A stretch of 64,000 nt of DNA. Source: an uncultured bacterium. GTDB lineage: Bacteria > Zixibacteria > MSB-5A5 > CAIYYT01. Location: the NCBI GenBank assembly GCA_963726455.1, contig CAVSCK010000005.1, positions 64,973 through 128,972 on the forward strand. Direction: 5' to 3'. A model generated the notes under the pieces. The model had not been told where the DNA came from, did not search any database, and saw nothing but the letters and a program-made list of their open reading frames with translations. A program made the position numbers and the translations under genes. Positions 6,811 through 57,113 of the stretch are shown here, in pieces; position 1 is the stretch's first letter, and each line of letters starts with the position of its first letter.

Positions 6811-7908
6811 TTGCGGGAATCAACGTTGACATTTACACCAAAGACAATTTGCGCAGTGTTCGTGATGTTCACGGGCTTAGCTTTGTCCGGCGCCGGCTGT
6901 GAGGATGCGCCGGTGGCGCGGTTGCAGAACGCCAAGGACGCATTGGCACATGCCGCCGATGCCGGAGCATTACGCTACGCAGAGCCGACATATCGAAATG
7001 CGGAGCAATGTTTGCAGACTGGCTGGATGGAGCTGGCACGCCAGAACGGTCATCTGGCGCCGCTACGCGACTATCAACTTGCCGATTCATTGCTGAAAAT
7101 GGCAACATCGCTGGCATTACAGGCGGAAGACAAGACACGCGACAGCATTTCCACCATGCAGAGTATGTCGGGCAACGAATTAAAGGAAATGAAGACCGAA
7201 CTGGCTGAATGGCTGGACGCCTTGAACGGCTCGCTGGCCGGCTTTAATGTAAAGGATTATTGGCTCCGGGCAGATATGAACATACAGATCGCCGAGGGGC
7301 TGATCAGCAAGGGCGAGTACGAGGAATCGCGCGTAAATATGGCGAAAGCGCGTACCTTCCTGACTCAGCTCGGAAAGGTCCTTGAGGCCCATGCCGATGA
7401 TGAAGCAAAGAAACTGGGAGTATGGCGCCGTTGGGTGCAGCAGACTCTTGACCAGTCGCGATCGGCCAACGGGTACGCAGTTATTGTAGATAAAGCGGCG
7501 CACCGGACTTATCTGGTCAAAGGCGGAAGATTATTACATACATACGGTTGTGAACTGGGGTATAACTCCTCACGCCAGAAGCTGTTTGCCGGCGATGCGG
7601 CAACGCCGGAAGGGATGTACGAAGTGACCTCGGCCCGGCATCGTGGCAGCAAGTATTACAAAGCGCTCCTCTTAAACTTCCCGAACGCGGCAGACAGAAA
7701 ACGGTTTGCGGAGAACAAATCCAAAGGTATAATATCACGGAGAGCGCGTATCGGCGATTGGATTGAAATACACGGCGAGGGCGGAAAGAGCAAAGACTGG
7801 ACTCAGGGGTGCGTCGCCCTTACGAATAAAGATATGGATCACATCATGCAATATGTAACCGTCGGAACGCCGGTTACCATCGTTAGAAAGTCGGATCAGT
7901 GGCCATGA
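6811..7908 (+). CDS. L,D-transpeptidase (YkuD domain) with N-terminal helical domain
   Basis: C-terminal catalytic region HGEGGKSKDWTQGCVALTNKDMDHIM with the His...GC motif; start uncertain (TTG 6811, GTG 6862 or ATG 6865). Confidence 0.85.
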   Translation: MRESTLTFTPKTICAVFVMFTGLALSGAGCEDAPVARLQNAKDALAHAADAGALRYAEPTYRNAEQCLQTGWMELARQNGHLAPLRDYQLADSLLKMATSLALQAEDKTRDSISTMQSMSGNELKEMKTELAEWLDALNGSLAGFNVKDYWLRADMNIQIAEGLISKGEYEESRVNMAKARTFLTQLGKVLEAHADDEAKKLGVWRRWVQQTLDQSRSANGYAVIVDKAAHRTYLVKGGRLLHTYGCELGYNSSRQKLFAGDAATPEGMYEVTSARHRGSKYYKALLLNFPNAADRKRFAENKSKGIISRRARIGDWIEIHGEGGKSKDWTQGCVALTNKDMDHIMQYVTVGTPVTIVRKSDQWP

Positions 7909-8552
7909 AAAAGGTCATCATTTTCACAGTTGCACCGATTGTATTTCTGGTCGGCGTCCTGGTTGTCTTCATGACGCTCACCAAAGAGAAACCGCCCGAG
8001 GGGATCAAGCTGGCAATTGCGGACACACTGGCTACCAACTTGCCCAAAGACGAGAAGGCAGCTCGTACGCAACTGCAGAATGCCGAGAAGGCGCTGGCCA
8101 AGTTGAAACCAGCGAAGCCCTACATCGTGATCGATACTCATGCCAATCGCATTTACTATCGCACGGAAGACTCTATTTATCTGGACGCGGTTTGTTCCAC
8201 GGGTTCCGGCAGCGAGTTGATTGATTCCGTTACCGGCCGCAAATGGATTTTCAATACGCCGCGCGGCGTGTTCAAGATACAGAACAAGATCAAGGATCCC
8301 TGGTGGCGCAAGCCGGACTGGGAATTTATCGAGACCGGTGAACCGATACCTAAGAGCGAATCCGACCGCATGGACGGCAATGTCATGGGCGACTTCGCGA
8401 TGGGTTTTGGTGACGGATTTTTCATTCACGGTACCATTTACGAAAGATTGCTGGGAATCAACGTGACGCACGGCTGCGTACGTCTCGGAACCGACGATCT
8501 CAAGAAGCTGGTGGACATGACGCCCATCGGCACATCGGTGTACATATTTTGA
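7905..8552 (+). CDS. L,D-transpeptidase (YkuD domain)
   Basis: ATG at 7905 overlaps the upstream stop (ATGA); N-terminal TM/signal; catalytic HGTIYERLLGINVTHGCVRL. Confidence 0.9.
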   Translation: MKKVIIFTVAPIVFLVGVLVVFMTLTKEKPPEGIKLAIADTLATNLPKDEKAARTQLQNAEKALAKLKPAKPYIVIDTHANRIYYRTEDSIYLDAVCSTGSGSELIDSVTGRKWIFNTPRGVFKIQNKIKDPWWRKPDWEFIETGEPIPKSESDRMDGNVMGDFAMGFGDGFFIHGTIYERLLGINVTHGCVRLGTDDLKKLVDMTPIGTSVYIF

Positions 8553-9247
8553 TGATGCGGCAAGTTCTGATGACTCTGAGAGGACAAGCGATTTCCGTTA
8601 TTGGGCTACTGGCATGCTCAGTGATGCTGTCATGTTCGGGCGGAACAGATGGAACCGGCACTCCGAAACAAGAGAAGTGGAGCCCTGACCAGGCGAAGCT
8701 CAATTACCAGGTGATGCAGGCCGAGTTGAAACTGGCGCAAACCAACAAGCCCTATCTGGTGCTGGACCTGAAACATGCCCGACTTGAAATCAAGCTGCAG
8801 GGAACCACCGTCTGGAATTATAAGATGACGCTGGAAAATACTGACGGTTCGGAACTGGAGAAATTCAGCGACCGGTTCATGGGCTCGGACGAGAAAGTAG
8901 TCCGGCCGGTATTGTACAAGTATTTGTTCGCGTCATCCAGCCGCACGCCCGACTCGATTCTGGCGATTGTCAGCGAAGCGACAACTTTCCCGCCGGAACT
9001 GTTGCAGCGCACAATCCCCGAGCGCTTTCAATTGAGGTGGAGTGATGATGCCGTGCTCGACATTCGCACTGACGTTGTCGGCAAGCCTGAATCGAAATGG
9101 AAAAATACGATAGTCGATATTCGCCAGGCAATTTCGCGTCCGCTTGGCGAGGCCTTCGTGGTCGTCAGGATGCCGAAGGATAATGCCATCACGCTTTATC
9201 GCGCCGCGACAATCGGCCTGCCAACGCTGATCTATCCCGCGTCCTGA
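8552..9247 (+). CDS. lipoprotein of unknown function (no YkuD catalytic His/Cys)
   Basis: Start overlaps the preceding stop; lipoprotein-type signal ...LLACSVMLSC; no Cys after the signal peptide, so not an active L,D-transpeptidase. Confidence 0.5.
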   Translation: MMRQVLMTLRGQAISVIGLLACSVMLSCSGGTDGTGTPKQEKWSPDQAKLNYQVMQAELKLAQTNKPYLVLDLKHARLEIKLQGTTVWNYKMTLENTDGSELEKFSDRFMGSDEKVVRPVLYKYLFASSSRTPDSILAIVSEATTFPPELLQRTIPERFQLRWSDDAVLDIRTDVVGKPESKWKNTIVDIRQAISRPLGEAFVVVRMPKDNAITLYRAATIGLPTLIYPAS

Positions 9248-9950: not shown

Positions 9951-12872
9951 TCAGGGTTTACAAGGCGCCGGTCCACCGCTGAAGATGTAGGAAATCAGAT
10001 AGACGGCATCTGAGATATCAACCGAATGATCACAGTTGGCGTCACCGGCATCCAGCGGATTCGGCGCCGCGCCACCGGAGAAGATATAGCCGATAAGAAA
10101 GACCGCATCGGAGATGTCGATCCCGCCGCTACCGTCAGCATCACCGGGCACGAACAGCGGTCCTGCCGTGTACAAGTGGGCTGCCGCCCAACGTTTGGCC
10201 TTGACCATGTTACCCTTCAAATCTGCGAGTGTGCCGTCACGCACGGTTGACAGGGCGCTGTAAATGACGATTGTATCCTGTGGCCCGATGTTCCGATTGT
10301 TGATGAAGGTCATGGTGGCAAACTGGTCGGTGGGATTTGTCTCGGGCAAATAACCCGGATTCTGCATCAAGCCGTAAATCTGCACGGCAACGAAGCCGTT
10401 GGTGCCATAGATGTACTGAGAGGAACTGGCCGTAAAGGCACCATAAGGCACTTTGCTAGTGTCAATCACGCCGTCGGCATCGCTAATGCCAAGCAGTGCC
10501 TGTCCCGCAAACCGGCGCGAGCCATCGATACAGTCGAAGCCGCCGCCCTGCTGATATATCATCTTCGTACCGGCATCGAAGCCCCCGACATTTTCCTGAG
10601 GATTGCCGCCGCAGTCCCAGTCGATGGCATCACCGATGCCGATTCCCGTGTGCACGAGGGTATCGAACGAGGTGATTTCGACTCGCTGGATGACGAAGTT
10701 GCAGCTATCGGGATGCTTGGGCGCATACCACGATTTCTTGATTGCAAGGAATTGATCGAGGGTGACGAAAGTGCCGCTCCGGAAGACCTCGTAAGCGCCT
10801 GAATCCGCAGTCGGCGCCATCGGTTCACCGTGGCGAGGCGTGCGGTAGCTATTGCCGTAATACATGTTCCAGTTCGCGGCATACCATGGGCCATTTATGT
10901 AAGTGACCAGCAGCGTGCCGTCCCAAAGATAGTTGTTGACGCAATCGCCCTGACCAAGGTAATCAAGGGCAGCTCCGTACGTGCCTGCCTTGCCGAAATT
11001 GCCCAGATTATTTACGATCAATTTGGTGCAGGATGTGGCGACGGTATCATAGACTTGCACGTTGAAGAGTGCACAGGCGTCGCCAAAGCCATCCCCGTCG
11101 GAATCGGTTTGATCGGGATTGTATACATCGGGACAGTTGTCTATCTGGCACGTTGCTGAAGGATAACCGGGATTACCGAAGCCGTCGGCGTCGGGATCAA
11201 CGCAGTTGTCGCAGGCATCGCCGATGTTGTCATGGTCTATGTCGGCCTGATCAGGATTAGCGTAACCCGGGCAGTTGTCGCAAGCATCACCGGCACCATC
11301 TGCGTCACCGTCGGCCTGGTCGGGATTGGCAACCGCGGGGCAGTTGTCGGTGGCATCGGAAAAGCCATCGCCGTCTTTGTCGAAATCGACGTAGGCGTAC
11401 AGGCGGTCGCCACGGATTGAATCAACTCTGACTGTGATGCCGGTGGGACCATAATAGCCGGCGCTGCTGGGAAATGTAGTCGGACTGAAGGTCGACTGAC
11501 CGGGAACGTTATCGGAGAAGAGCGCGCCTTTGCGGGATTCGTAGGGGTACCACCACTGGGCCGTATCGCTTACGTGTCCACCGGGATTGTTATGATAGTC
11601 ATACGCTGGGTTGTAGCCGGCATCCTCGACCGCGACCGTGTAATGAGGATATGTTGGCGTTCCGTCGTTGATGCGGAAATAATCGGCTTTGAGCGAGTCA
11701 TGGACATGCGTTATTAGCAGCCCGCGATCGAGCGGATCGCAGCCAAGCGACAGGTCGGGATAGAAGTAACAACTGAAATCCGAATCAAACTTGTCGAACT
11801 GTGCCGTCGACTGAGGATTGCGATACTCCAGCATGAAGTATTCCCCCTGCGCCATGTTGATCGGCAGAATGTAATAGGAGCTGTCCTTCGTCGTCTCGCA
11901 GTTGCGAATCATGAGTGATGGATATTCTCGCTGCTCCAACACAGTCGGTGTAATCCAACCGGCCTCTTTCTTGGTCCAGCCGCAGTGATGCGACGGGATG
12001 ATGGACTTGATCGAGAGAATCCCGTAACCGCCATAACCCATTGTGCACCAGTCATAGACCGGATGATCGTTGTCGTCGTTCGGAGTAAAGAAAGTGGAGA
12101 CGGTGAGCTTCTCATCGTAATCGTACAAGTCGGGAACTCCCACGTTGTGTGAGAGCTCATGGCAGAACACTCTGATATAGTTCAAGGTATCAACGCCGGT
12201 AAAGTCGTAGGGGCTGTATGGGTCATGCAAAGGGCAGGTTTCCGGGCAGGTATTCACGCGCGGAAAGCGTTTGCCGTCAAACGGTCCATAGCCGGTACCG
12301 GGTGAGCCGACCTGGGCATATGACCAGATGTCCATCGGATTGTGCGAGTCCTCCTGGCCTCTGCCGGCGTGAATAAATGTGACGGCATCGACATCGCCGT
12401 CGTTGTTGCCGTCAAATTGCGAATAGTCAATTACGGGATTAAGTTCCGCCAAGAGTGAACCAAAGTTGACATAGCCATTGTAGCTGCCTTCGGTGTGCCA
12501 CTCAATCACCTGACCCGTTACAGTCAATTGACCGTATGACGCCTCATGAAAGTAGTCCGCTACGGAACCCATCGGCAACACATTGCGCGAAAAATAGAGC
12601 GTATCGAAGGCGCCGCGAGTCCAGGTGTGGGGGCGGTTGGTCCAGTCGATCAGAATTACGAGTACCTTGAGCGTGTCGCCCGTGAAACGAAATTCGTCCA
12701 TCGACCTTATTTCATCCGGAGTCAGCGTGGACGGGGGCATTTTACCGAATTGCCTCTCCATCACTTCATTGGGTACGTCGAGGATTCGCACCTTCGACAT
12801 GTCGAAGGCGAAGGATGTAGTAGCGACCAATAGACAAGCCAAGGCCACCAGCCCATTAACCATAGATCTCAT
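9951..12872 (-). CDS. secreted M6-family (immune inhibitor A-like) zinc metalloprotease with thrombospondin type-3-like repeats and C-terminal dockerin-like tandem module
   Basis: Signal peptide from ATG 12872 (AGAGGT upstream); HExxH site [19 protein letters not shown]; repeated DxDGDGxxDxxDNCP calcium-binding units; C-terminus [25 protein letters not shown]...[31 protein letters not shown]. Confidence 0.8.
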
Positions 12873-12984
12873 AGGTACCTCTAATTTCAGTGTCGGCAAG
12901 AAGAATGCTGACAGATGTCGATTCTACAAACGGCTGTATAAAGCGCGATTCGGTTAGCTTAGTATACGCAATTTTGGCGAATTT

Positions 12985-17218: not shown

Positions 17219-19222
17219 CTATCTCAGCGAATTCACGAAGTCACGCACGCGAGCGTCGGACGGCACTAGGGCGAGATACTTGTTCAAATACACGAGCGCG
17301 TTGTCGCGGTCGTTCAGATTCTGGGCGTAAATCAAGCCGATATTGAGGAGCAGCTTGCTGTTGGTCGAGTCGTAATTGAGTGCTTCGATATAGTTGTCGA
17401 CAGCCAGAGTGAAGTTGCCGGTTTGATGCGCCGCGTTGCCGCGATCTTTGTAAACGTTTGATATGTTGAACAACAACTCCCTTCTATGCTTCTCACGCAA
17501 TAGCGGTTTGTTCAATCCAAGGTTGTAGGCCTCCAGCGCCAAATCTCCGAAACCGAAACGACGCAACTGCGCGCCGATCATGTTCAGGCATTCGCCGCGT
17601 GGTTCATTCTTCATCCGCGCAATCGCTAACCGACAATCTGCCAGCGCACCAGTCGAGTCCGGAGGAGCAAGCTGCAACCTTTCTTCGGCACTCGCCAGAT
17701 CGAGATTCGCCAACAGCAGCCGCGACAGAAAATCGCCCGGATCAAAGTCCGCAGGAAATGACGGCAGCGACGCTTTGGTTTCCGGCGGGCGCAGCAACGA
17801 GTAGAGTATGCCGTCGGAATACAGCGAATCCCGCCCAGGAAGCCAATTGGGTTCATTCCAAACAAGATTCTTCACCAGATAGTTCGGCTGCTTGTCGTTT
17901 GCGAAAATGGCGGCACGCGCTTGATAGTAGCTGCGTCCCGCACCGGGCTGATACGATTCCGCCTGCTGCAGCATTGCGTAACCGCGTATTGACAGGCGAT
18001 CGTATGCGGTGACGTCCGGCCGATAATTCTCGGCGTAACGCAGATAGAGTGGTCCGAAGCCGTCGACATCGCAGGAGGCGAACAGCACGCCGCTGTCAGC
18101 GGTATCGAGTATCAGGCGGGAGTATTGTTCGTACAGAGTGTATTTCGATTTGTCGCAGGAGCCATAGTGGGCTATCAACATGACAGCGGCTGCAACTACG
18201 CCAACGACGGCGGGAATCAACTTACCAAATTTCTTCATCCAGACAAAATTGCTGGAGATGAACAGCAGACATGCCAGCATCGCCGGCAGAAAATAAGGGT
18301 CATAGTCGGCGGCACTCTGTGCGGCAGCAAGTGCAAACGACGTGACGGTAAACAGCAAGAGAATTATCGCCTGTGAGACATTCTGGCGAAAGGCGATCAC
18401 GGCACCCGAAATAGCCGCGACTATTCCAATCCACCACCAGGAGGAAAATGCCAGAGTCCAAAGCAGTTTGGCCGAGTCTACAACACCGCCGGAGGCGCTG
18501 AGAACGACGTTGCGATATTGGCGCAGGGTCATGTGCTTGAGTGATGCCGCAACACCGACAGGATGCCCCCAATCCGAAATCGGGTCTTGCGCTGATCGCG
18601 CCCAGAGATAGAAATAGGTAGTGCCGGCCAGAACAAATAGCGCGACATAGACTGGCAACCGCCGCCAGTTACGATACTCCCGCTCCTTGATAAACACGAA
18701 GATAATCGCGGGCGCCAGGGATAGTGATGTCGGATGCCCGTCAAGACAAAGGCCGTAAAGGAAGAAGACCAGTAGCCACTTGTATCGTGCATCACTCATA
18801 AGCGCCAGCAATGTCAGCAAGATCAAGAGCAGGTTGAGACTGAAGACATCGACACTGACGGCCTGCACCCAAAATGCGGGCGTAAATGCCCAGACCAGAC
18901 TTACGGCAACGGCGGAAACGTCGTCAACATATTTGCGGCAGATCATGAAAAGTACCGAGACACCAGCCGCCGCACACAGAGCTGCAAACAGGTTGGCGGC
19001 AACTACCGGCCTTAGTGCGAAAAAGAGTTGCACGAACACGCTGCCGGTAAATGTGAACAACGGATAGCCGGGAGGATGAGCGATGCCGAGCGTCTTGAGC
19101 GCCAGAGCGAATTCGGCGCCATCGCCGATGTTGATCGACCGGCACAGCGTCAGCAGATAGACAATCAGCGCAATGCCGCCCGGTATAACGGGGAGATATC
19201 GTGAATAGCGCGAAGTCGTCAC
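17219..19222 (-). CDS. polytopic membrane protein, DUF2723/TMEM260-like (putative glycosyltransferase) with C-terminal TPR repeats
   Basis: N-terminal motif GDGAEFALALKTLGIAHPPGYPLF; about ten hydrophobic helices; C-terminal TPR-like repeats; GTG start. Confidence 0.6.
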   Translation of the reverse strand: MTTSRYSRYLPVIPGGIALIVYLLTLCRSINIGDGAEFALALKTLGIAHPPGYPLFTFTGSVFVQLFFALRPVVAANLFAALCAAAGVSVLFMICRKYVDDVSAVAVSLVWAFTPAFWVQAVSVDVFSLNLLLILLTLLALMSDARYKWLLVFFLYGLCLDGHPTSLSLAPAIIFVFIKEREYRNWRRLPVYVALFVLAGTTYFYLWARSAQDPISDWGHPVGVAASLKHMTLRQYRNVVLSASGGVVDSAKLLWTLAFSSWWWIGIVAAISGAVIAFRQNVSQAIILLLFTVTSFALAAAQSAADYDPYFLPAMLACLLFISSNFVWMKKFGKLIPAVVGVVAAAVMLIAHYGSCDKSKYTLYEQYSRLILDTADSGVLFASCDVDGFGPLYLRYAENYRPDVTAYDRLSIRGYAMLQQAESYQPGAGRSYYQARAAIFANDKQPNYLVKNLVWNEPNWLPGRDSLYSDGILYSLLRPPETKASLPSFPADFDPGDFLSRLLLANLDLASAEERLQLAPPDSTGALADCRLAIARMKNEPRGECLNMIGAQLRRFGFGDLALEAYNLGLNKPLLREKHRRELLFNISNVYKDRGNAAHQTGNFTLAVDNYIEALNYDSTNSKLLLNIGLIYAQNLNDRDNALVYLNKYLALVPSDARVRDFVNSLR

Positions 19223-19348
19223 TGCCCGTAGTCCCGATGGCTTCCAAGTAGTCTCATGTTAGCCAAGTTTACAGCAGGTCTGCATCTGAAGCAAGCGCTA
19301 ATAGAATCCTATCACACATATGCTTTCCGGCGTGTATATTGGCTGAGT

Positions 19349-20065
19349 ATGAAGATTCTGCGCTGTGTCGTTGTGATCGCACTGTTCGCATTAGGTGCGG
19401 AGTTGAGCGCCGCCCAGGATACTCCCCAGCAGAAGCAGCCCATGAATACGACTGTGAATGAATTGCACGGCACCTTGATAATCAGGGCGGACTCCGTGGC
19501 TGCGCCCGGATCGGTGATTGTCGTGGGCGTGGCATTTGCAGATACAACAATTTCGTTTGCGGGCTTTAGTCTCAATATCGAGTACGACCGCGGCGCGCTG
19601 GTCTTCGATTCTGCGACTCTCGGATCGTTGACAACCGGCGAGTGGGAGTATTTTATGACGAACTCTGGCCTATTAGACAAAGCAGATTCAGTCGGCAGTC
19701 CGGGATTCGTTCGCCTGGTCGGCCTGGCAGATCAACAGGATGAAGCCAAGAGGACTCCCAAACCACGTTCACTGGTTGGACCGGGGGAAATCGCCAAACT
19801 CTACTTCTATGTCGGGGACAGGGCGGAATATCAGGGTAAGTCGACATGGCTGAGATTTGCCTGGGGTAAGTGCGACGACAACTCCTTCTCTGACCCGAAG
19901 GGACTGCGATTGTTCCTGTGTCGCAAAGCATACGATGTCGAAGGGAAATTGATCTCATCAGGAACAGCCAGATATAGCGGCCCGTCCAACAACTGCTTTC
20001 GGTCCAAGCGCAACCCTCCGGAACGTTGGTTTGACTTCCGCAATGCCCGGATACTGATCAAGTAG
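19349..20065 (+). CDS. secreted protein with candidate cohesin-like domain
   Basis: Signal peptide MKILRCVVVIALFALGAELSAAQD; segment GSVIVVGVAFADTTISFAGFSLNIEYDRGALVFDSATLG ... GPGEIAKLYFYVGD follows the cohesin beta-sandwich pattern; assignment by eye only. Confidence 0.5.
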   Translation: MKILRCVVVIALFALGAELSAAQDTPQQKQPMNTTVNELHGTLIIRADSVAAPGSVIVVGVAFADTTISFAGFSLNIEYDRGALVFDSATLGSLTTGEWEYFMTNSGLLDKADSVGSPGFVRLVGLADQQDEAKRTPKPRSLVGPGEIAKLYFYVGDRAEYQGKSTWLRFAWGKCDDNSFSDPKGLRLFLCRKAYDVEGKLISSGTARYSGPSNNCFRSKRNPPERWFDFRNARILIK

Positions 20066-20094: not shown

Positions 20095-20128
20095 ACAAAA
20101 TAAAACGGGCGAGTTTGTGACTCGCCCG
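20095..20128 (-). terminator. rho-independent terminator downstream of rplY
   Basis: CGGGCGAG / CTCGCCCG stem; on the minus strand followed by TTTTATTTTGT. Confidence 0.65.
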
Positions 20129-20177
20129 CGAGAATCCACGATCAGGACCGGGATTTGAATTCAGCGAAAGACTGGGG

Positions 20178-22077: not shown

Positions 22078-23076
22078 CTAAAGAATGATTGAGAGCAACA
22101 TGTAGGATGCGACGCCGAAGATTGCCGCACCGGGAATAGTGAAGAACCAAGCCAATACGATATTGCCGATTATCTTCCAGCGGAGATTGCCGAGTCGTCC
22201 GGCGATGGCGGTACCGGCGATAGAGCCGGTGGCGACTTGAGTCGTCGACTTGGGGATGCCGAGCAGGGCTGTTACCAAAATCACTGTCCCCGCCGATGCT
22301 TCGGCAGCGCAGCCGTCCAGAGGTTCGTGCAGCCTGGTCATCTTGTGTCCCATGGTCTTGATAATTCGCCAACCGCCTACCGAAGTCCCAAGTCCAATTG
22401 TGAATGCTGAAGCGATACGAACCCACAGGGGAACATGAAAGGTACTGATCGCTCCCGCAGACAAAAGCGCAATCGTCATTATACCCATGGCATTCTGCGC
22501 GTCGTTCATGCCATGAGCAAGCGACACATAGGCCGCGGAGAGGACCTGAAAGTGCTTGAAGACTTTAGCTGTCGCACGATACGGCAACTTCCAAGCCGCC
22601 CAGGAAAAGATGACTTTCAAGAGCAGGCCGCCGAGCAAGCCGATGAATGGCGCTACAATCATAGCGATACCGATTTTGAGAATTCCGGACATTACAAGTA
22701 TTTGGAAGTCGAAGTGATTTATGAACAGCCCCACTCCGATCAACCCGCCGACAAGGGCGTGAGTCGAGGAAGACGGCAAACCGAAATACCAGGTGAAGTA
22801 CCCCCAAAGCACCGCCCCCGTGACCGCCGCCAAAAGCAAAGGCAGCGTGACGACATTGCTTTCAATCACTCCCTTACCTATCGTGTAAGCCACGGCGGTA
22901 TTGAGCAGGCCACCGACGAAATTCAGGGTGCGTGCCATAATAATCGCCTTGCGGGGCGACATGGCGCGAGTTGCGATTGTCGTGGCGATGGCATTGGCGG
23001 CGTCATGGAAACCGTTGACGAAATCATACATCAATGAAGCCGCTATGATTAGAATCAGGAGAAGCTGATCAGACAT
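22078..23076 (-). CDS. pit: inorganic phosphate transporter, PiT family
   Basis: 332 aa polytopic protein with the duplicated PiT signature GFHDAANAIAT / GMNDAQNAMG. Confidence 0.9.
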   Translation of the reverse strand: MSDQLLLILIIAASLMYDFVNGFHDAANAIATTIATRAMSPRKAIIMARTLNFVGGLLNTAVAYTIGKGVIESNVVTLPLLLAAVTGAVLWGYFTWYFGLPSSSTHALVGGLIGVGLFINHFDFQILVMSGILKIGIAMIVAPFIGLLGGLLLKVIFSWAAWKLPYRATAKVFKHFQVLSAAYVSLAHGMNDAQNAMGIMTIALLSAGAISTFHVPLWVRIASAFTIGLGTSVGGWRIIKTMGHKMTRLHEPLDGCAAEASAGTVILVTALLGIPKSTTQVATGSIAGTAIAGRLGNLRWKIIGNIVLAWFFTIPGAAIFGVASYMLLSIIL

Positions 23077-23951: not shown

Positions 23952-24717
23952 TCAATTCAGCGCCCGAAGATAGCAAAATTGTTGGACGCCAGTCGAACTC
24001 GATTTTGGATGCCAATCCGACAAGACAATCGACGGCGATTGGCAGGCGGTCAGCATAGGACGATTTGCCCCATGGCGGACAATTTCACCGTCGACCATGT
24101 AGATCACGTCTTCGGCAATGTTGGTGGTGTGGTCGGCGATGCGCTCGAGATTGCGGGAAACAGCGAGCATCTGAATGAGCGAGTCCATCCTTTCGGGAGT
24201 CTTGCGAATCTGTCCCTGCACGCACTCGTACATGCTGCGGTTGATCTCATCGACTTCGTCGTCGGCAGCCAGCACCGAATGCGCCAGCTGCCGAATCGAG
24301 ACTTACCAGCGAGTCGAGTGCAGTGTGCAACATGGACTCGACTTTTTCGGACATCTTGGGAAAGTCATACGGATGGACGACCGGCTCCTGCAGCGCCAGT
24401 GACACGGCGCGCTCGGCGATATTGGCGGAGAGATCACCGATCCGCTCCAGATCGTTGTTGATCTTCAGCACGGCGATAATAAACCGCAGATCGATCGCGA
24501 CCGGCTGATGCAACGCCAGAATCTTGAGGCAGTCCTCTTCCACTTCGACTTCCATGTTATCAATCAAGACGTCGTCGTCGACCACGCGGCGCGCCAGTTT
24601 TTCGTCACGGCTGACAATTGATTTCACGGCGCGGTGCAAAGAATCTTCGACCATGGCTCCGAGCGAAAGAATCTTGCGCTTAAGCCGATCAATTTCTCGT
24701 TGTAAATGCTGTGCCAT
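23952..24717 (-). pseudogene. phoU: phosphate signalling complex protein PhoU, interrupted by one frameshift
   Basis: N-terminal half in ORF 24247-24864 from MAQHLQREIDRLK; C-terminal half in ORF 23952-24275 (AADDEVDEINRSMYE...RIADHTTNIAEDVIYMVDGEIVRH); junction between 24247 and 24300. Confidence 0.75.
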
Positions 24718-24766
24718 CTTTCCTTCCCGTAGTTCCTGACGTCGATTGAATGACCTCAGACGATGA

Positions 24767-25591
24767 TCATCCGAACCGGCCGGTGACGTAGTCTTCGGTC
24801 TGCTTCTTGTCCGGCTTGGTGAATATCTTCGGCGTTTCGCCGAATTCCACCATGTGGCCTTCATAGAAGAAGGCCGTATAGTCCGAAATACGCGCCGCCT
24901 GCTGCATATTGTGCGTCACGATCACAATCGTGTATTGCTTTTTCAACTCGGCGATCAGGTCTTCGATCTTGGCGGTCGATATCGGATCGAGCGCCGATGC
25001 CGGTTCGTCCATCAGCAGCACTTCCGGCCGGACAGCCAACGCCCGCGCGATGCAGAGCCGCTGCTGCTGGCCGCCGGAGAGCATGTAGGCGCTGTTCTTG
25101 AGCTTGTCCTTAACCTCTTCCCACAGAAATGCCCTCTTGAGCGTGTCCTCCACCGCTTCACTGATCATCTGCTTGTCGTTGATGCCGTTAACTCGCAGAC
25201 CGTAGGCGACATTGTCGAAGATCGATTTCGGAAATGGGTTCGACTTCTGAAAGACCATGCCGACGCGCGTGCGCACAGTGGAAACATCCCTGATGTCCTG
25301 GTAAATATCGACGCCGTCGAGCTTGACGATGCCTTTCATCCGCGTTCCGGGAATGGTTTCGTTCATCCGATTGAGCGTGCGCAGAAATGTCGACTTGCCG
25401 CAGCCCGATGGGCCGATGAACGCCGTGACGCCGTTTTCCTCGATATCGAGAGACACGTTGTGCAATGCCTGGACGTTGCTGTAGAAGAAGTCCAGCTTGC
25501 GTATTTCGAATTTCACTCTGCCCGGTTGACGCGGCGGATGGCCGCGTGACACCACCGGACGTTCGCTCATTTCCAGTTCTGATTCAACCAC
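24767..25591 (-). CDS. pstB: phosphate ABC transporter ATP-binding protein
   Basis: Walker [13 protein letters not shown] signature LSGGQQQRL, and conserved PstB C-terminus. Confidence 0.95.
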
Positions 25592-26535
25592 TGATTCGCC
25601 TCGACCTAATTTTCGATCTGATCAGTATCGCTACAAAGTTCAGCAGAAATGTCAGCACCAGCAATACCAGCACCGTGCCATAGAGAATCGGTTTGGTCTT
25701 TTCGACATCTGGTGACTGGGTTGACATGACGTAGACATGATACCCCAGTTCCATGAACTGATCGTTGAGCGCCCGGGGTAGATACGGAAGATAGTAGGCG
25801 GCGCCCGTAAACATGATCGGCGCGACTTCGCCCGCGCCACGGCTGATTGCCAAGATCGCGCCGGTGAAGATGCCGGGGAGCGCCTGCGGAATTATCACTC
25901 GAATAATCGTCTGCAGTTTGGTCGCGCCCAGCGCATAGCTGGCGTCCTTGAGTTCGCGGGGAATTGCTCGCAGCGCTTCTTCTGTCGACACAATCACGAC
26001 CGGCAGACGTCAGCAGCGCGAGTGTCAGGGCCGCCCAGATTATCGCCGGTTGTCCCCAAACCGGTTTCTCCGCTCCCAGTAGTCCAGTGTCGATTCCATG
26101 TCCGATAAATCCGATGAAGAACCCCAGACCGAACAATCCGAACACGATTGACGGCACGCCGGCGAGATTGTTGATCGCGGTGCGAATCAGCCGCGTCGTG
26201 CGCGAGGTCGGGCTGGTGTATTCCGATAGGTAGATCGCCGTCAGTACGCCGACCGGAACACCGGTTATGACCATGAGCAGAACCAGGAACACGGTGCCAA
26301 AGATCGCCGGAAAGATACCGCCCGCTTCCATGCCGTCTTTCGGCGGCTGCGTGAGGAATTCCCAACTAATGATGCCGGTTCCGTGCAGCAATACATTGAA
26401 GAGTATAATGCCCAGCATCGCGACAATGATCAGCACCGCCGCCAGTGTCAGGCCTTGCGGAATCAGTCCGCGAGTTTTGGGACGAAATTGCAGTGGAGCC
26501 AGAGTCGGGGCGGTAGCAGTTGAAGGGTTGCTCAT
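25584..26535 (-). pseudogene. pstA: phosphate ABC transporter permease PstA, interrupted by one frameshift
   Basis: First ~178 aa of ORF 25606-26535 are PstA-like up to ...AALTLALLT, then nonsense; ORF 25584-25997 continues in another frame with IVSTEEALRAIPRELKDASYALGATKLQ; junction near 25997-26010. Confidence 0.8.
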
Positions 26536-27491
26536 GACGTCCTCCCCTGCAATCTGGTTTTGAGCCGTCCCAGGATGACTTCGCCGCCCAGATTAGTCAC
26601 GAACGTGAACAAGAACAGTACCGTGCCGATGAAGAAGAGCACAGAATAATGTGTGCTGCCGAAAACAACTTCCGCGAGTTCGGCAGCGATCGTCGCCGAA
26701 AGAGTGCGCGCCGAATCAAGGAAGCTCGCGGACACAATCGCGGCATTGCCGGATGCCATCAATACGATCATCGTCTCACCAATCGCTCGGCCAAAACCGA
26801 GCACGATTCCGGCGGCAATACCGGGAAGGGCCGCAGGCAACACCATCGTAAACGAAACCTGCCAGGGATTCGCTCCCAACGCTCGCGCGGCATCACGCAA
26901 CGATTGCGGCACCGAGGTCATCGCATCTTCGGCGACAGTGAAGACGATCGGAATGATCGCCAGACCGAGAGCAATGCCGGCATTTAGCACGTTCAGGCGA
27001 TAGGTCAAACCCAGTGTCTTCTGCAAGACGGTCGCCAAGACAATCAGCGCGAAGAAGCCCAATACCACCGAGGGAATGCCGGCGAGGAGTTCGATCACCG
27101 GTTTGATGATTTCCCGCATTCGTTTGGAGGCAAATTCCGCGGAGTAGATTGCAGCGCCGACAGCAAGCGGCGTCGCGAATAACATGGCGATGATTGCGGC
27201 CTTGATCGTGCCCAGCATCAGAGGCCAGAGCGAATACTTGGGCACTTCCGAATTCGGCTGCCAGCTCCATTTCGCGGGCTTGTCCTTCTGAAACTGCTGT
27301 TTGAACGTCATCTTGTCGAGACTGGCTTCCTGCTGAGCATCGGCTGACGTGAAAATCGGAGCGGCTTCCTTGAAGATGAAAATGAAGATTAGCAGTATCG
27401 CTATCAGCGCCACGAATGCGTTTACCGCAATGAACTTCTCACCGAGAAATTCCCGCCAACGCGATTTGGGCTTGAACTGATAAGGCGTCAT
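26532..27491 (-). CDS. pstC: phosphate ABC transporter permease
   Basis: 319 aa, six TM helices, permease core EAA-like loop; position between pstS and pstA. Confidence 0.9.
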   Translation of the reverse strand: MTPYQFKPKSRWREFLGEKFIAVNAFVALIAILLIFIFIFKEAAPIFTSADAQQEASLDKMTFKQQFQKDKPAKWSWQPNSEVPKYSLWPLMLGTIKAAIIAMLFATPLAVGAAIYSAEFASKRMREIIKPVIELLAGIPSVVLGFFALIVLATVLQKTLGLTYRLNVLNAGIALGLAIIPIVFTVAEDAMTSVPQSLRDAARALGANPWQVSFTMVLPAALPGIAAGIVLGFGRAIGETMIVLMASGNAAIVSASFLDSARTLSATIAAELAEVVFGSTHYSVLFFIGTVLFLFTFVTNLGGEVILGRLKTRLQGRTS

Positions 27492-27501
27492 ATTGCGATC
27501 C

Positions 27502-28326
27502 TCATTTCACCGGCAGCGGCACAAAGCCGGCCTTCTGTGCGAGGGCCTGGCCTTCAGACGACAAAACCCAATTCACGAAATCCCTAACTTCACCAGACGG
27601 GTCGCCATTGAGAAGAAAACAGAGGTCGCGAGCAATCGGATAGACACCGAGTGTTACATTTTCAACAGTCGGCGTCACGGGCTGCGCAGTGTCATTTTCG
27701 CTTATCGCTGCATACTTGATACCACTGGCCCAGGCAATGCCGCCATACCCGATACCGTTGGGATCGTGAGCGACTGCATGAACTACTGACGCCGTACCCG
27801 GCAACGGCTCACAGCGTTCGGCGAAATCCTCGCCGCCCAGGATGCGATCCCGAAAGAAAGTAAATGTGCCCGAATTGTTTTCGCGGCCGTAGAGGATGAT
27901 CGGATTGTCCTTGCCGCCAAGTTGGTTCCAGTTGTTGATGCTGTCGGTATAGATTTCGCGAAGCTGCTCGATTGTCAGATCACGAATCGGATTTTCTTTG
28001 TTGAGATAGACAGCAACGCCATCACGAGCAACCGCAAACCGCCGGAGATCGATTCCTTTCGCCGACATCATCTGTGTTTCCTGAGCAGACAGTTCGCGCG
28101 AGGTCATACAAATCTTGGTCGAACCGTTGACCAGCGCCGCGATTCCCGATGACGATCCGCCGCCGGAGACCTGAATCACTGTTTCTTTGTGATTCTTCAT
28201 GTAGTCCTCGGCCCAGCGCTGGCAGAGGCGAACCATGGTGTCCGAACCCTTAATAGTGATTTGCCCCGCGGATGCCATCTGAGACACGAGTAGAACACAC
28301 ACAGCGACAACAAGCACCCTCTTCAT
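27502..28326 (-). CDS. pstS: phosphate-binding periplasmic protein
   Basis: Signal peptide; PstS-like motifs (GSDTM, GGGSSSG, SRELS). Confidence 0.9.
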   Translation of the reverse strand: MKRVLVVAVCVLLVSQMASAGQITIKGSDTMVRLCQRWAEDYMKNHKETVIQVSGGGSSSGIAALVNGSTKICMTSRELSAQETQMMSAKGIDLRRFAVARDGVAVYLNKENPIRDLTIEQLREIYTDSINNWNQLGGKDNPIILYGRENNSGTFTFFRDRILGGEDFAERCEPLPGTASVVHAVAHDPNGIGYGGIAWASGIKYAAISENDTAQPVTPTVENVTLGVYPIARDLCFLLNGDPSGEVRDFVNWVLSSEGQALAQKAGFVPLPVK

Positions 28327-28364
28327 CAGTGATTCCCTTGCATAAAGGAAGTAACGACTCGGAA

Positions 28365-28382
28365 TGTTAGGATTTTGTTAGG
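28365..28382 (-). promoter_or_regulatory. Pho-box-like tandem direct repeat upstream of pstS
   Basis: On the minus strand CCTAACA-AAAT-CCTAACA: two 7-mers at 11-bp periodicity, about 40 nt upstream of the pstS ATG. Confidence 0.5.
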
Positions 28383-28423
28383 AATCAGTAAGATGTCGAC
28401 AAAGCGCGAATTTGGGGCAAGGA

Positions 28424-29800
28424 TTACTTCGATGGCAGATGGATTGTGAACGTGCTTCCCTGCCCCACTTTACTGTCTACGCTCAGCGTTCCGTTGTGTG
28501 CGATCACAATATGCTTTGATATCGCCAATCCGAGCCCGGTGCCGCCTTCGGCACGGCTGCGAGATTTGTCGACGCGGTAAAATCTTTCAAACAATCGCGT
28601 CAGATGTTCCGGTGCAATGCCACAACCCTGATCGCGGACGGCGATAGTTACGGAACTCTCGCCGCGTGCAGCGGCGACATCTATCCTTTTCCCCGGCTCA
28701 CTGTATTTCACCGCGTTATCAATCAGATTAATGACCGCCTGTTCAAGCAGCGGTTGATTTGCGCGCACGCGGAGATCTTCGGGACAGGACAAGGTAACGG
28801 AAATGTGCTTAGCGCTCGTGAGTGAATCACAGGCGGTAATGGCTGCCGCCAGAATGCTCCTTAGCCCGACCGGCTGCAGTACGATCTGGCCCCGTTCGGC
28901 ATCCTGTTCGATTCGTGACAGCCTGAGTAAGTCTTCGATTATGTTCTGCAACCGTGCCGCCTGCTTGCCGATGATTTCAAGAAACCGGCGCGACTCCACA
29001 GGGTTCTCCAGCGAACTGTCAAGCAAGGTCTCAATGTAGCCCTTGATCGAAGTGATCGGGGTTTTCAATTCGTGAGACACATTAGCGACAAATTCACGCC
29101 GCAGGTTTTCGAGTTTGCGTATGCGAGTGACATCATTGAGTACGATCAGTGCGCCGAGCCGTGCGCCAGAATTACTTCGCATGGCTGTGCCCGTCACCTG
29201 CAAGTATCGCTCGTCTCTGCCTGCCAGAATTATGTCTCCTTCTGCTGCCACATCCAGCGTCAGTGCCCGGCCTACCAATTTCTGTAGTTCGGCATGACGC
29301 ACCGTATCCTGAAGAGTGCGTCCGACGGTTGCCTTGAGATCGACATCGAACATCCGCGCAGCCGACTGATTGATGCTGACGATCTTTTCATCCGCGTCGA
29401 CAACCAGAACGCCTTCGATCATGTTCGCGGTGATCGTGTGGTATTCCTGGCTCTGCTGCGACAACACTCCGGAACGCGCGGCGAGCTGCTCAGCGATGCT
29501 ACTTAGCGAGTCCGCTACTTCATCCAGTTCCGAAATGCCCGAGTGCAAAGAGTAGGTGTCGTATTCGCCGTTGGCGATGTGTTTTGTCTTCTGCTTTAGC
29601 TGCGTTAACGAGCGCGATAGCCGGCGTGACACGATGATGCCGGTTACAATCGCGGTTGCCAGAACCAGGCAGAGAATGGTGACGAGCACGCTCAGTGAGA
29701 CGGGCGCGGATACTGCGACAATTACCGTTGCCGCTATCACGACCAGTGCGATCAGCAGAAACGGCCGCATAAATCGCCAGAACGTTCGATCGTGGAGCAT
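28424..29800 (-). CDS. phoR: phosphate regulon sensor histidine kinase
   Basis: 458 aa; two N-terminal TM helices, PAS-like region, HisKA H-box (VSHELKTPITSI) and HATPase_c domain; directly downstream of phoB. Confidence 0.85.
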   Translation of the reverse strand: MLHDRTFWRFMRPFLLIALVVIAATVIVAVSAPVSLSVLVTILCLVLATAIVTGIIVSRRLSRSLTQLKQKTKHIANGEYDTYSLHSGISELDEVADSLSSIAEQLAARSGVLSQQSQEYHTITANMIEGVLVVDADEKIVSINQSAARMFDVDLKATVGRTLQDTVRHAELQKLVGRALTLDVAAEGDIILAGRDERYLQVTGTAMRSNSGARLGALIVLNDVTRIRKLENLRREFVANVSHELKTPITSIKGYIETLLDSSLENPVESRRFLEIIGKQAARLQNIIEDLLRLSRIEQDAERGQIVLQPVGLRSILAAAITACDSLTSAKHISVTLSCPEDLRVRANQPLLEQAVINLIDNAVKYSEPGKRIDVAAARGESSVTIAVRDQGCGIAPEHLTRLFERFYRVDKSRSRAEGGTGLGLAISKHIVIAHNGTLSVDSKVGQGSTFTIHLPSK

Positions 29801-29802
29801 GG

Positions 29803-30489
29803 CTATTCCTTGAGCTTGTAGCCGACACCGCGGACGGTCTCGATAACCGCGCCCTGGATTCCCAGTTTGCGGCGCAAACCCACAATCTGCACGTCGACCG
29901 CGCGGTCGGTTACGATGGTCTCTTCACCATGGATTTCGTTGACGATTTGATAGCGGCTGAATACCCAGCCGGGATGGCGAGCGAGCAAATGCAGTATCTC
30001 AAATTCGGTCAGCGTCAACTCGACCGGTCTGCCCGCCAGCGTAACCTGATGACGTCCCGGATCAATCACTATGTCGTGGACTCTCAGCGTGGCGCCGTCC
30101 TTAACGTCCTTGCCTCCCTTGCGACGCAGGGCCGCGCGCACGCGCGCAATCAGGACTTTCGGGCTGAACGGCTTGGTGATGTAATCGTCCGCGCCAACTT
30201 CCAGGCCGGTGATGACATCGCTTTCTTCGCTCTTGGCGGTCAGCATGATTATCGGTATACGCTGAGTCTTCGAATCATTCTTGAGAATCTTGCAGACATC
30301 GAGGCCGTCGATTCCCGGCAGCATCAAATCGAGAATGATGAGATCAGGCAGATTATTGCGCGCTGCCTTCAAGGCCGCCTCACCGGTCGCGGCGCCGGCC
30401 ACACGATATCCCTCCTTGCCGAGGTTGAATTTGATAAGTTCGAGAATGTCTTCTTCATCCTCGACTACCAGAATCATTTCCTTAGCCAT
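29803..30489 (-). CDS. phoB: phosphate regulon response regulator (OmpR/PhoB family)
   Basis: Receiver domain (DLIILDLMLPGIDG) plus winged-helix output domain. Confidence 0.9.
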   Translation of the reverse strand: MAKEMILVVEDEEDILELIKFNLGKEGYRVAGAATGEAALKAARNNLPDLIILDLMLPGIDGLDVCKILKNDSKTQRIPIIMLTAKSEESDVITGLEVGADDYITKPFSPKVLIARVRAALRRKGGKDVKDGATLRVHDIVIDPGRHQVTLAGRPVELTLTEFEILHLLARHPGWVFSRYQIVNEIHGEETIVTDRAVDVQIVGLRRKLGIQGAVIETVRGVGYKLKE

Positions 30490-30659: not shown

Positions 30660-31715
30660 TTAGCAAATGCGCGGCAATTGCTCGCCGGAAAGCATATCAA
30701 CGATGCGGGTGGAACCGATCGCATTGGTCATCGTAACAAGGCCGGATTGATCCGCAGTCGTACTTCCGATGATGGCTGCGGCCGCGCTGACAGACTGAGA
30801 ACGCAGGGCCGACAGAGCGCGTTCAGCATCGCGCTCCGGCACAAACGCAACAAAGCGTCCTTCGTTGGCAACGTAGAGTGGATCGAGCCCGAGCAGCTCG
30901 CAAGCACTTCGTACCGGTTCACTGATCGTAATTGACTGCTCCTGAATGTGCACTCCGAGCTTGGCCGATTGCGCGATTTCATTCAGGGAGCTCGCCAGGC
31001 CGCCGCGGGTGAGATCGCGCAGACAGTGTACTGCAATTCCCGCAGCCAGAAGCGCCTGCACCGCATTGTGCAAAGGTGCACAATCGCTGGTGATTGTTGT
31101 CTCAAACTTCAGCCCCTCCCTCTGCGCCATGATCGCGATTCCATGCCGGCCTATGTCGCCGGAGAGAATTATGGCATCTCCCGCGCACACAGTTGCTGGA
31201 GCTATGCTCAGAGAATGTTCAATGATGCCGATTCCGGCTGTGTTGGTATAGATGCCGTCGCCTTTGCCGCGATCAACAACCTTGGTGTCACCGGTAACGA
31301 CCTGCACGTTTGACTCAGCAGCGCTGGCTTTGATGGACTGCATGACACGTTCAAGAGTCTCCACCGGCAGGCCTTCCTCTAGGATCAGCCCCAGACTCAG
31401 GTAAAGTGGTTTCGCGCCGGCCATCGCCAGATCATTGATCGTACCGTTGACCGCCAGTGTGCCGATATCACCGCCCGGGAAGAACAGCGGACTTACGACA
31501 TACGAATCCGTCGTGAATGCCAGCCGTTGCCCGCCGATTTCAAACACGCTCGCGTCATGGCACGATTGCAGCATCTTGTTGTCCAACGCGGGAAGAATGA
31601 CGTTGTCAAGCAACTGATGCATCAATCTGCCACCACCACCATGTGCCAGTAATATCTGTTCATAATTCGATAACGGCGTCGGGCACGAAAGTAATATGTT
31701 ATTATCATCCGGCAT
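30660..31715 (-). CDS. hypE: hydrogenase expression/formation protein HypE
   Basis: ATG 31715; AIR-synthase-like fold, conserved C-terminal ...PRIC. Confidence 0.9.
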
Positions 31716-31726
31716 GATGTGTCTGC

Positions 31727-32836
31727 CTAACCTTTCGTCTTGTTCTGAACCGTGATACCACGGTAACGGTAATAGGCAGCACAGGCGCCCTCGGAGGACA
31801 CCATAGTAGCACCGAGCGGATGTTCCGGCGTGCATTTGCTGCCGAACACGGGACAGTCATGCGGCTTCTTGATTCCTTGCAGGATTACGCCACTGATACA
31901 ATCTTTCGATTCCTCGACTTTGCGATCGGTCAATTTGAACCTGGTTTCGGCATCGTAGGCGCGGTATTCGCCACGCAATGCCAGGCCGCTGTTGCCGATC
32001 TCACCGATGCCCCGCCACTTGCGCGGGACGATTTCAAACACCTCTTTCAGCAACTTCTGCGCGGGAACATTGCCCTCGCGAGTCACCAAGCGACTGTATT
32101 GATTCTCCACTTCGCAACTTCCGGCTTCAAGTTGAGTGACGCACATCAGGATGCCCTGCAAGATATCGATTGGCTCGAAACCGGTGACGACAATTGGCAC
32201 GCGATACTTCATGGCAATCGGCTCGTACTCATGATAACCCATCACGGTACACACGTGCCCGGCGGCGAGAAATCCCTGCACTTGATTATTCGGCGATCCG
32301 AGTATCGCCTCGATTGCAGGCGGAACCAGAACTTGCGACACCAGAAGCGAGAAATTCTTCACGTTTCGTTGCTGCGCTTGCACGACTGTCATACCAATTG
32401 CGGGAGCGGTCGTTTCAAAACCGACGGCAAAGAAGACTACTTGTCTCTCCGGATTCTTTGTCGCTAACTCAAGCGCATCCAGCGGTGAATACACGACGCG
32501 CACGTCAGCACCCGCTGCCTTGACACTGAGCAAGTCACACCGTGATCCCGGTACGCGCAGCATATCTCCAAACGAACACAAGATCACTTCGGGCTGCGCC
32601 GCAATCTCAATCGCCTTGTCGATCAATTCAATGGGCGTCACACAGACCGGACAACCGGGTCCGTGAACAAGAGTAATCTGTGGCGGCAGTAATTCGTCAA
32701 TTCCGAAACGGACAATCGCGTGCGTCTGCCCGCCACATATTTCCATGATCGTCCAGGGTTTGGTGACGACGGCGGCGATTTGATCGGCCAATTTATGCGC
32801 TGAGGCGGCATCGCGATATTCATCAACGAATTTCAC
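31727..32836 (-). CDS. hypD: hydrogenase formation protein HypD
   Basis: 369 aa; motifs GPGCPVC and CTVMGY; C-terminal Cys cluster. Confidence 0.9.
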
Positions 32837-33087
32837 TGTGACTCCTCGCTGCGGGCGTCGGCTTCATCCATTTCTCGCAGATATTGAAACACTTTCTGCG
32901 CTTCGTCCTCGTCAATGATATTGAGCGCGAATCCGACATGGATCACCACGTAATCGCCAATCTTTACCTCCGGGACGTAACACAGATTCACATCTTTGAT
33001 CACGCCGCCGAAATCCACCCTGCCTGTCCGAAACACGGGATCATCGCCCGTAATGCTGATCACTTTTCCCGGAACTGCGAGACACAT
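32833..33087 (-). CDS. hypC: hydrogenase assembly chaperone HypC
   Basis: Starts MCLAVPGKV (conserved Cys2), ~84 aa. Confidence 0.85.
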
Positions 33088-33092
33088 TTGCG

Positions 33093-35420: not shown

Positions 35421-35438
35421 TTGCGCCCGGAAAGAAGT

Positions 35439-35945: not shown

Positions 35946-35951
35946 TTTGCA

Positions 35952-38013: not shown

Positions 38014-38014
38014 A

Positions 38015-47856: not shown

Positions 47857-48086
47857 AAGCTTGTCTCCTTTCATCCCTTTGGACACTTCTCTTGTTATAA
47901 AGAAACCGATTCGCTCCCTCACAGTTCCCTGTGATCGGTTGTCATGAGTCTTTCTGGCTCTACGATTAAGGTACGCGGCACCCTGCCCCATTTGTGGCGT
48001 CTAATTGACCTCCATAAACACAAGTTCCTGGCGGAGTAAGCGGGCTGATTTCTGGGGGCAAGAGGCGATTCTTAAGGGTCTGCGCT

Positions 48087-56909: not shown

Positions 56910-57113
56910 GCAAATAGACAGTATCACGGTCAATCCGTCCGGCAGACGGCTCGATCGCGTGCCCCTGTAGTAGTTGTTGTCAGCAGAGATGTCGTTGTCT
57001 ATGTTAAAGATACTGCCCTTACGGAGAAATGTCAATTGGAAAAGTGGAGTCGCGGGTACTGATTGCCGGTTCTTCTAACCGTTGATTGGGCATTCGGTTG
57101 CGCTCATAGGCAC

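Follow-up and report, generated by a model that had tools for sequence, protein, structure and literature searches.

A stand-alone cohesin of a divergent subfamily encoded in a dockerin-rich genome region of an uncultured Zixibacteria bacterium

Cohesin and dockerin systems related to the locus

Cohesins bind dockerins in a calcium-dependent manner on their 8-3-6-5 sheet. The protein described here is a cohesin of a divergent subfamily, coded by a gene at positions 19349-20065 (plus strand) of a 64,000-nucleotide stretch of DNA from an uncultured member of the Zixibacteria (contig CAVSCK010000005.1 of assembly GCA_963726455.1, positions 64,973 to 128,972). This stretch, called the window below, also codes seven proteins with a C-terminal dockerin. 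The overall explanation that we favour, with a probability of about 0.6, is that the protein is a single cohesin exported by the Sec pathway which acts as a monovalent receptor for dockerins of the window type.

The type I cohesins of A. cellulolyticus ScaB (Coh6, 5nrk), C. cellulolyticum CipC (Coh1, 2vn5/1g1k) and C. thermocellum CipA (1ohz) share 12-20% identity with the window protein. Compared to the clostridial type I modules, the latter is about 60 residues longer, features an insertion with a cysteine pair between strands 8 and 9, and is free-standing instead of being part of a tandem series or linked to a carbohydrate-binding module or an anchor. The host differs as well, being a diderm from the FCB group (Fibrobacteres, Chlorobi and Bacteroidetes), and the proteins tagged with dockerins are proteases and repeat proteins, not the cellulases of the clostridial systems. 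For the autonomous single cohesin ScaG of R. flavefaciens (4n2o) a role as adaptor, carrier or cap has reportedly been discussed. The window protein has 15% identity to ScaG and to the type III cohesin of ScaE, of about 200 residues, from which it is set apart by its insertion content and its phylum. ScaG binds dockerins (PMC12270676). Its role belongs to a plant cell wall cellulosome and is not transferable to the window protein.

Cohesin and dockerin modules are carried by non-cellulolytic proteins in the non-cellulosomal systems of A. fulgidus (2xdh) and of the toxin complexes of C. perfringens (2vo8, 2jh2, 2w1n), which the locus resembles in this respect. For such modules outside cellulosomes, PMC8542988 cites Peer et al. 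2009. A cellulosome-like complex was also inferred in Cloacimonadota, a phylum of the FCB group, where dockerins are found on S8 and other peptidases and a scaffoldin with tandem cohesins ends in a type IX C-terminal domain (PMC8542988). This pattern is also shown by relatives of the window protein. The locus departs from the Cloacimonadota and the other described systems in its Zixibacteria-like phylum, in the divergence of a subfamily that scores below the Pfam threshold, and in the pairing of a stand-alone member with a GT-C glycosyltransferase. The occurrence of cohesin-dockerin pairs outside cellulosomes is already established, with a published example in Cloacimonadota, and current ideas are not overturned by the present findings. 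The literature search retrieved no paper mentioning both 'Zixibacteria' and 'dockerin'.

The divergent cohesin, its fold and its family

A cohesin-like domain had been proposed for the protein in a first-pass annotation, to be checked against Pfam. The Pfam Cohesin profile (PF00963) does match the protein, over profile positions 4-76 of 139 only, but at 20.2 bits (E 7.3e-4) the match stays below the gathering score of 24.1. A similar sub-threshold match is found in 15 of 23 family members. A profile made from the close family only detected no cohesin among the PDB sequences; its sole match, adenovirus fibre (E 0.27), was taken as noise. The broadened profile A3, which combines the stand-alone family with eight distant modules, matched nothing but cohesins among the PDB sequences at E<=1 (14 of 14), the best match being ScaC of R. 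flavefaciens (E 9.7e-4).

Relatives with several copies of the module connect the protein to recognised cohesins. The family profile matches P0037, a protein from an "FCB group bacterium", at E 4.7e-80 and in four copies, and it matches P0038 and P0035 too. These multi-copy relatives are above the Pfam Cohesin threshold (82 bits and E 5.9e-23 for P0037, 68 bits for P0038, 61 bits for P0035). Pairwise alignment of the window protein with the four modules of P0037 gives 26-30% identity over about 180-235 residues, and three of the four alignments extend to the C-terminal strand, including the insertion between strands 8 and 9 and both its cysteines. As judged from sequence comparison, homology to the cohesins that pass the Pfam threshold is reached transitively, through these intermediates. 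The assignment to the cohesins is supported by the weak but specific profile signal, by the multi-copy relatives above the gathering score and by a structural search in which the top 20 matches were cohesins.

The AlphaFold2 model of the protein, built on a 23-sequence alignment, has a mean predicted local distance difference test (pLDDT) score of 79 and a predicted template modelling (pTM) score of 0.75, with 109 residues at pLDDT >=90. Foldseek searches with this model gave cohesins at all ranks from 1 to 20 (lowest E 6e-8, probability 1.00, target-normalised template modelling score 0.74). Cohesins from C. cellulolyticum, C. thermocellum and C. perfringens are among the further structural matches. 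The model superposes on solved cohesins as a nine-stranded beta-sandwich, the jelly-roll for which structure prediction had been suggested as a check. The two strings initially quoted for their alternating strand pattern, GSVIVVGVAFADTTISFAGFSLNIEYDRGALVF and GPGEIAKLYFYVGD, are both present in the protein and lie on predicted strands 2-4 and 7.

The cohesin module spans residues 40-238 (19466-20062, plus strand) and consists of the beta-sandwich with extra elements. Type I modules of the textbook kind have about 140 residues; this one is about 60 residues longer, and most of the surplus is at residues 171-224 (19859-20020, plus strand), between strands 8 and 9. This insertion carries the run KCDDNSFSD together with C175 and C216, all in invariant columns of the family alignment, and is modelled at a block-mean pLDDT of 81-94 as a hairpin (residues 179-181 and 188-195) and a short helix (214-217). 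The two invariant cysteines suggest a C175-C216 disulfide, which would fit an extracytoplasmic location. The insertion, of about 55 residues, is common to the modules of the multi-cohesin relatives and, with the KCDDNSFSD signature and the conserved cysteine pair, marks the subfamily. A precedent for extra elements between strands 8 and 9 is found in CohScaE, of about 200 residues (PMC12270676).

The open reading frame read from the ATG at 19349 has 238 codons followed by a stop codon. The frame noted in the first-pass annotation is thereby real, and its length of 239 amino acids had the stop counted in. An alternative ATG at 19256 leads to a protein of 269 amino acids, from which database entry P0001 was called. 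Nearly all of the 34 homologues have 234-246 amino acids (about 239) and start some 17-20 residues ahead of the hydrophobic segment, which favours the start at 19349. These homologues are 42-61% identical to the window protein, with a mean column identity of 59% and 34 invariant columns. Such conservation in 34 proteins discounts a chance reading frame, and on this sequence evidence 19349-20065 is a real gene. The NCBIfam scan of the 238-amino-acid protein assigned no family.

Residues 1-22 (19349-19414, plus strand), MKILRCVVVIALFALGAELSAA, are followed by QD, and their n-h-c arrangement is on inspection that of a signal peptide for the Sec pathway, in agreement with the initial description of the protein as secreted. 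No lipobox was seen on inspection of the amino terminus. Anchoring as a lipoprotein was rejected, the only cysteine of this region preceding the hydrophobic core. The signal peptide is followed by a linker of 17 residues rich in S, T, P and Q and then by one domain of about 200 amino acids; in the model, a helix at residues 4-14 precedes a low-confidence linker at 19-37. The mature protein is accordingly one cohesin with no anchor, an organization of the autonomous ScaG type. It is not that of a scaffoldin, as there is a single module accompanied only by the signal peptide and the linker.

A search of 1.84 billion representatives with the family profile gave 1091 proteins at E<=1e-3, counted as clusters at 50% identity, and 703 at E<=1e-10. 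Architectures were assigned by local hidden Markov model (HMM) scans to the best 150 of the 1091 relatives. Most of these are large proteins in which the module, of about 200 residues, occurs one to five times. Two to four modules precede a C-terminal dockerin of the window type in 29 proteins, two to five modules are combined with the type IX secretion tail motif NYPNPF in 18, one module is combined with this tail in 43, and 8 are stand-alone proteins shorter than 330 amino acids. The type IX tail motif occurs without a window-type dockerin in 61 of the 150. One scaffoldin-like relative, P0051 (1644 amino acids, three modules and a dockerin), belongs to Candidatus Zixiibacteriota, and the records of the stand-alone protein have Zixibacteria and "uncultured Ignavibacteria" among their names. 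The divergent subfamily is widespread in Zixibacteria and other bacteria of the FCB group.

Single modules with the signature FxWTKCDDN are also found in large type IX cargo proteins coded at two related loci of other FCB/Zixibacteria metagenome-assembled genomes (L021, 1383-9245; L020, 652-3243). There, the module is directly followed in the same chain by an internal dockerin-like segment (GDINLNG..EIADAV..., ...DVNADG...DLVYLIR). This internal type of dockerin also comes after the cohesin module in P0048 and P0056; a search of the window for it (GDINLNG...EIAD) gave none.

The amino-terminal modules of P0037, P0051 and P0052 align with the stand-alone protein from the signal peptide on, as they would if the gene were the truncated remnant of a multi-cohesin scaffoldin gene. 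Such an origin, or an annotation artefact, is highly improbable. The 34 homologues are of near-constant length (about 239 amino acids), stop at the same alignment position and are conserved throughout, the cohesin gene is found at the same place in many genomes, and the domain model is confident and complete. The segment 20066-20177, past the stop codon, showed neither frameshifts nor scaffoldin-like coding.

Dockerins of the window and the proposed receptor role

Seven C-terminal Dockerin_1 modules are coded in the 64 kb of the window, with scores of 24-37 bits for a cut-off of 22.9. The one nearest to the cohesin gene ends an M6 metalloprotease of 982 amino acids with an HELSH motif and TSP3 repeats (9951-12899, minus strand; TIGR03296 117.1 bits for a threshold of 110.8; Dockerin_1 25.5 bits). 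Two proteins have the dockerin as their only recognised module, a secreted protein of 329 amino acids (42734-43723, plus strand; 32.7 bits) and a protein of 654 amino acids (46027-47991, minus strand; 32.1 bits). They are followed by three genes of the minus strand with Dockerin_1 matches at the C-terminus of their products: a TSP3/He_PIG protein of 818 amino acids (48164-50620), an M6 peptidase of 797 amino acids with an HEYGH motif, TSP3 and He_PIG (51059-53452), and an S8 subtilase of 1074 amino acids with FG-GAP and ASPIC/UnbV (53811-57035). The seventh dockerin, found with a local dockerin HMM (Dockerin_1 34.4 bits), is the C-terminal end of a protein whose gene runs off the window (63522-63998, minus strand). 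Five of the seven are located in or beside one gene run at 46-57 kb. The view that the window encodes a cohesin and dockerins outside the cellulosome context holds, since the seven Dockerin_1 matches are above threshold and the region has no cellulase context. The 329-residue protein has no recognisable catalytic domain, and a stretch rich in cysteine and histidine (CATHTCTDCGGSCAHSHCFNCY) is found just before its dockerin.

The dockerin modules are near-identical, including both helices. Both 12-residue loops read D-x-N-x-D...D, positions 1, 3, 5 and 12 (N, N+2, N+4, N+11) being acidic or amide as PMC12270676 describes for dockerins, and each loop is followed by a helix. The two halves of each module are almost alike, as in type I dockerins with a dual binding mode. 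The uniformity of the helices would imply that the dockerins of the window share one receptor type. Six of the seven have a conserved outer cysteine pair (CGDA...PCAGC) and an inner pair (NCD...PC), while the M6 protease at 9951-12899 and its orthologues, except that of locus L001, have the same helices without the outer pair. A private specificity class for the dockerin of this neighbouring protease was considered and gave no sign, its helix residues being equal to those of the other dockerins. The family HMM run over the window for further cohesin modules matched the target protein alone.

Two further proteins of the window, coded at 3265-5451 (plus strand) and 62341-63381 (minus strand), end in a type IX sorting domain (Por_Secre_tail/CHU_C). 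The presence of both tail types in the window indicates that the secreted proteins of this genome carry two C-terminal tags, type IX tails and dockerins.

We consider it slightly better than an even bet that the window cohesin binds the dockerins of the window type. The mature module of about 200 residues, exported as a free cohesin, would grip the C-terminal, calcium-binding dockerins with duplicated segments of at least seven secreted proteins of the window (M6 and S8 proteases, TSP3/Ig-repeat proteins). By analogy with solved complexes, the two dockerin helices would be placed on one sheet of the sandwich. With a single module and no anchor the protein is no scaffold by itself and could not bring several enzymes together; within the cell envelope, either in the periplasm or at the surface, it would serve dockerin-tagged proteins as adaptor, carrier or cap. 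It would do so next to anchored multi-cohesin proteins of the kind that the phylum is known to encode and that occur as scaffoldins in relatives.

Support for dockerin binding comes from the co-occurrence of dockerins in the same region, from gene linkage and from the fusions of module and dockerin in relatives. Linkage was assessed in 30 related loci drawn from species-representative genomes, metagenomes and exact look-ups. In six of them (L002, L004, L007, L024, L025, L026) the gene for the M6 protease with dockerin is the immediate divergent neighbour of the cohesin gene. In L001, L005 and the window the two genes are 2 kb, about 4.5 kb and 6.4 kb apart, respectively. The protease-linked loci form one clade, with cohesins 50-61% identical to that of the window. 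Since long and short forms of the protease occur within the clade, the linkage has outlasted several rearrangements.

Besides the sub-threshold Pfam score and the failure of the close-family profile to find cohesins in the PDB, several observations weigh against the receptor role. The protease-adjacent loci belong to one related clade and represent few independent events. Genes for window-type dockerins are found within 10 kb in only about one third of the loci, and among loci with 10-kb flanks about half lack a nearby dockerin gene. The most persistent neighbour of the cohesin gene is a glycosyltransferase gene, not a dockerin gene. A lone cohesin without anchor has no obvious scaffolding role, and the true partners of the window dockerins could be multi-cohesin scaffoldins coded elsewhere in the genome, of the type seen in the phylum with P0051.

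A protein with the cohesin fold might have lost dockerin binding, or never had it, and use its sandwich for another ligand, for instance in a structural role in the envelope, as a module of adhesin type or in the binding of carbohydrate. Its identity to any dockerin-binding cohesin is just 12-20%, its direct Pfam score is below threshold, and the stand-alone subfamily has features of its own (DTT, PKPRSLVGPGE and KCDDNSFSD). Set against this are the repeated fusion of the same module type to dockerins and its tandem arrangement as in scaffoldins, the richness of the region in dockerins (7 in 64 kb) and the linkage to the gene of a dockerin-bearing M6 protease, so that another ligand seems unlikely.

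Gene neighbours and biological significance

The cohesin gene is divergent from a gene at 17219-19222 (minus strand) that had been described earlier as coding a DUF2723/TPR membrane protein. This description was confirmed by matches to PF11028 (67 bits for a threshold of 24.2), PMT_2 (29.1 bits for 26.1), TPR_11 and TPR_8. The product has the organization of a TMEM260-like GT-C glycosyltransferase, with a hydrophobic region at residues 1-350, in which the acidic motif GDGAEF follows the first helix, and a soluble region at 351-667 bearing the C-terminal TPRs. The two genes are separated by 126 bp (19223-19348) that contain one promoter-like site on the plus strand (19311-19340), no more than expected by chance.

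The divergent pair occurs in 13 loci, the window included (listed as the window, L006, L008-L016 and L027), with cohesin identities of 42-48%. Three arrangements are distinguished. In the first, ClpB is coded upstream (L006, L013, L027; L016 is grouped here by its downstream genes). The second (L008-L012, L014, L015) has a different upstream set and, downstream, a PD40/Peptidase_MA_2 protein of 1040 amino acids. The third is that of the window, where ribosomal protein L25 and PRPP synthetase are coded downstream. The glycosyltransferase and cohesin pair is the sole adjacency common to the three.

This conservation of gene order over three neighbourhoods, at cohesin identities of just 42-48%, raises the possibility that the main tie of the protein is to the divergent enzyme, as its dedicated beta-sandwich substrate with O-glycosylation of conserved Ser/Thr residues or as a periplasmic partner bound to its TPRs. 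Human TMEM260 (DUF2723, GT117) O-mannosylates one type of beta-sandwich, the IPT domain, and recognition of this substrate is presumed to lie in its TPR region (PMC10214176). Like TMEM260, TMTC1-4 are domain-specific O-mannosyltransferases with TPRs, each acting on one beta-sandwich type (PMC10214176). The enzyme of the window resembles this group in its matches to PF11028 (TMEM260-like) and PMT_2 and in its C-terminal TPRs, and its link to the cohesin is one of gene order. The possible acceptor sites are sequons of the form D(S/T)(A/I/L/V/M/T), three of which (D48-S-V, D65-T-T and D87-S-A) are near-invariant in the family (21-22 of 23 sequences). We know of no bacterial TMEM260-like member with a known substrate. 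Bacteroidetes use D(S/T)X as their sequon for O-glycosylation, and as of 2022 the transferase acting on it had not been found (PMC8729774). The stand-alone proteins have a mean of 3.4 sequons, against 0.88 in shuffled sequences and 1.7 per 200 amino acids in the modules of multi-domain relatives. The linker that follows the signal peptide has many S, T, P and Q residues.

The case for this tie is one of synteny only. The enrichment in sequons was noticed post hoc and is marginal (P about 0.05, for shuffles reaching three or more), conserved columns are to be expected anyway at 59% column identity, and the sequon is a Bacteroidetes motif which may not be that of Zixibacteria. The periplasmic location of the TPR domain would follow from analogy to TMEM260, and the protease-neighbour clade, L003 and L017 have no adjacent glycosyltransferase. 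A main tie to the enzyme is for these reasons a tentative explanation, one that would be compatible with dockerin binding, as a glycosylated cohesin is conceivable. It is doubtful that the divergent pair is a functional unit in which the enzyme O-glycosylates the cohesin at its conserved D-S/T-X sites or, through the cohesin as adaptor, recruits dockerin-tagged Ig/TSP3-repeat proteins in order to glycosylate them. The monovalent dockerin receptor remains our preferred reading of the protein.

Other features surround the cohesin gene. In nine loci (L003, L008-L012, L014, L015, L017) it converges on the gene of a protein of about 1040 amino acids (Peptidase_MA_2, PD40/beta-propeller, Omp85-related), followed by EPSP synthase. 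This is the third recurrent neighbour of the cohesin gene and is found in one clade. In the window, where the cohesin and L25 genes converge, the space between them contains at 20105-20129 a GC-rich hairpin that has a T-run on the minus strand. This hairpin is probably the terminator of L25 and may function in both directions.

Elsewhere, the window codes at 30660-38884 (minus strand) an NiFe hydrogenase cluster (large, small and FAD/NAD-binding subunits) with HypE, HypD and HypF, near which a multihaem cytochrome of the NapC/NirT type is found (40999-42546). A phosphate-uptake regulon occupies 24247-30489 (minus strand), with a PhoB-type response regulator, a PAS histidine kinase, PstS, one or more permeases, PstB and PhoU, and a PHO4-family phosphate transporter is coded at 22078-23076. 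Two consecutive YkuD L,D-transpeptidase genes with overlapping ends (6811-8552, plus strand) are followed by a reading frame of 232 amino acids with no family match (8549-9247).

The present analysis assigns to the cohesins an unannotated family of 238-amino-acid proteins recorded as "hypothetical protein". It brings to light a large cohesin subfamily mostly missed by Pfam, with more than 1000 clusters at 50% identity, mainly from uncultured bacteria of the FCB group. The conserved pairing with a TMEM260-like enzyme offers a starting point for finding what bacterial GT-C/TPR enzymes act on. If the two products do act together, the domain-specific O-mannosylation of beta-sandwich domains in eukaryotes would have a prokaryotic counterpart, and the enzyme would be a candidate for the O-glycosyltransferase that acts in the FCB superphylum on D(S/T)X. 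The scaffoldin-like proteins of the relatives and the dockerin-tagged M6 and S8 proteases point to protease-centred, cellulosome-like surface assemblies in Zixibacteria, which bear on protein degradation by these sediment bacteria.

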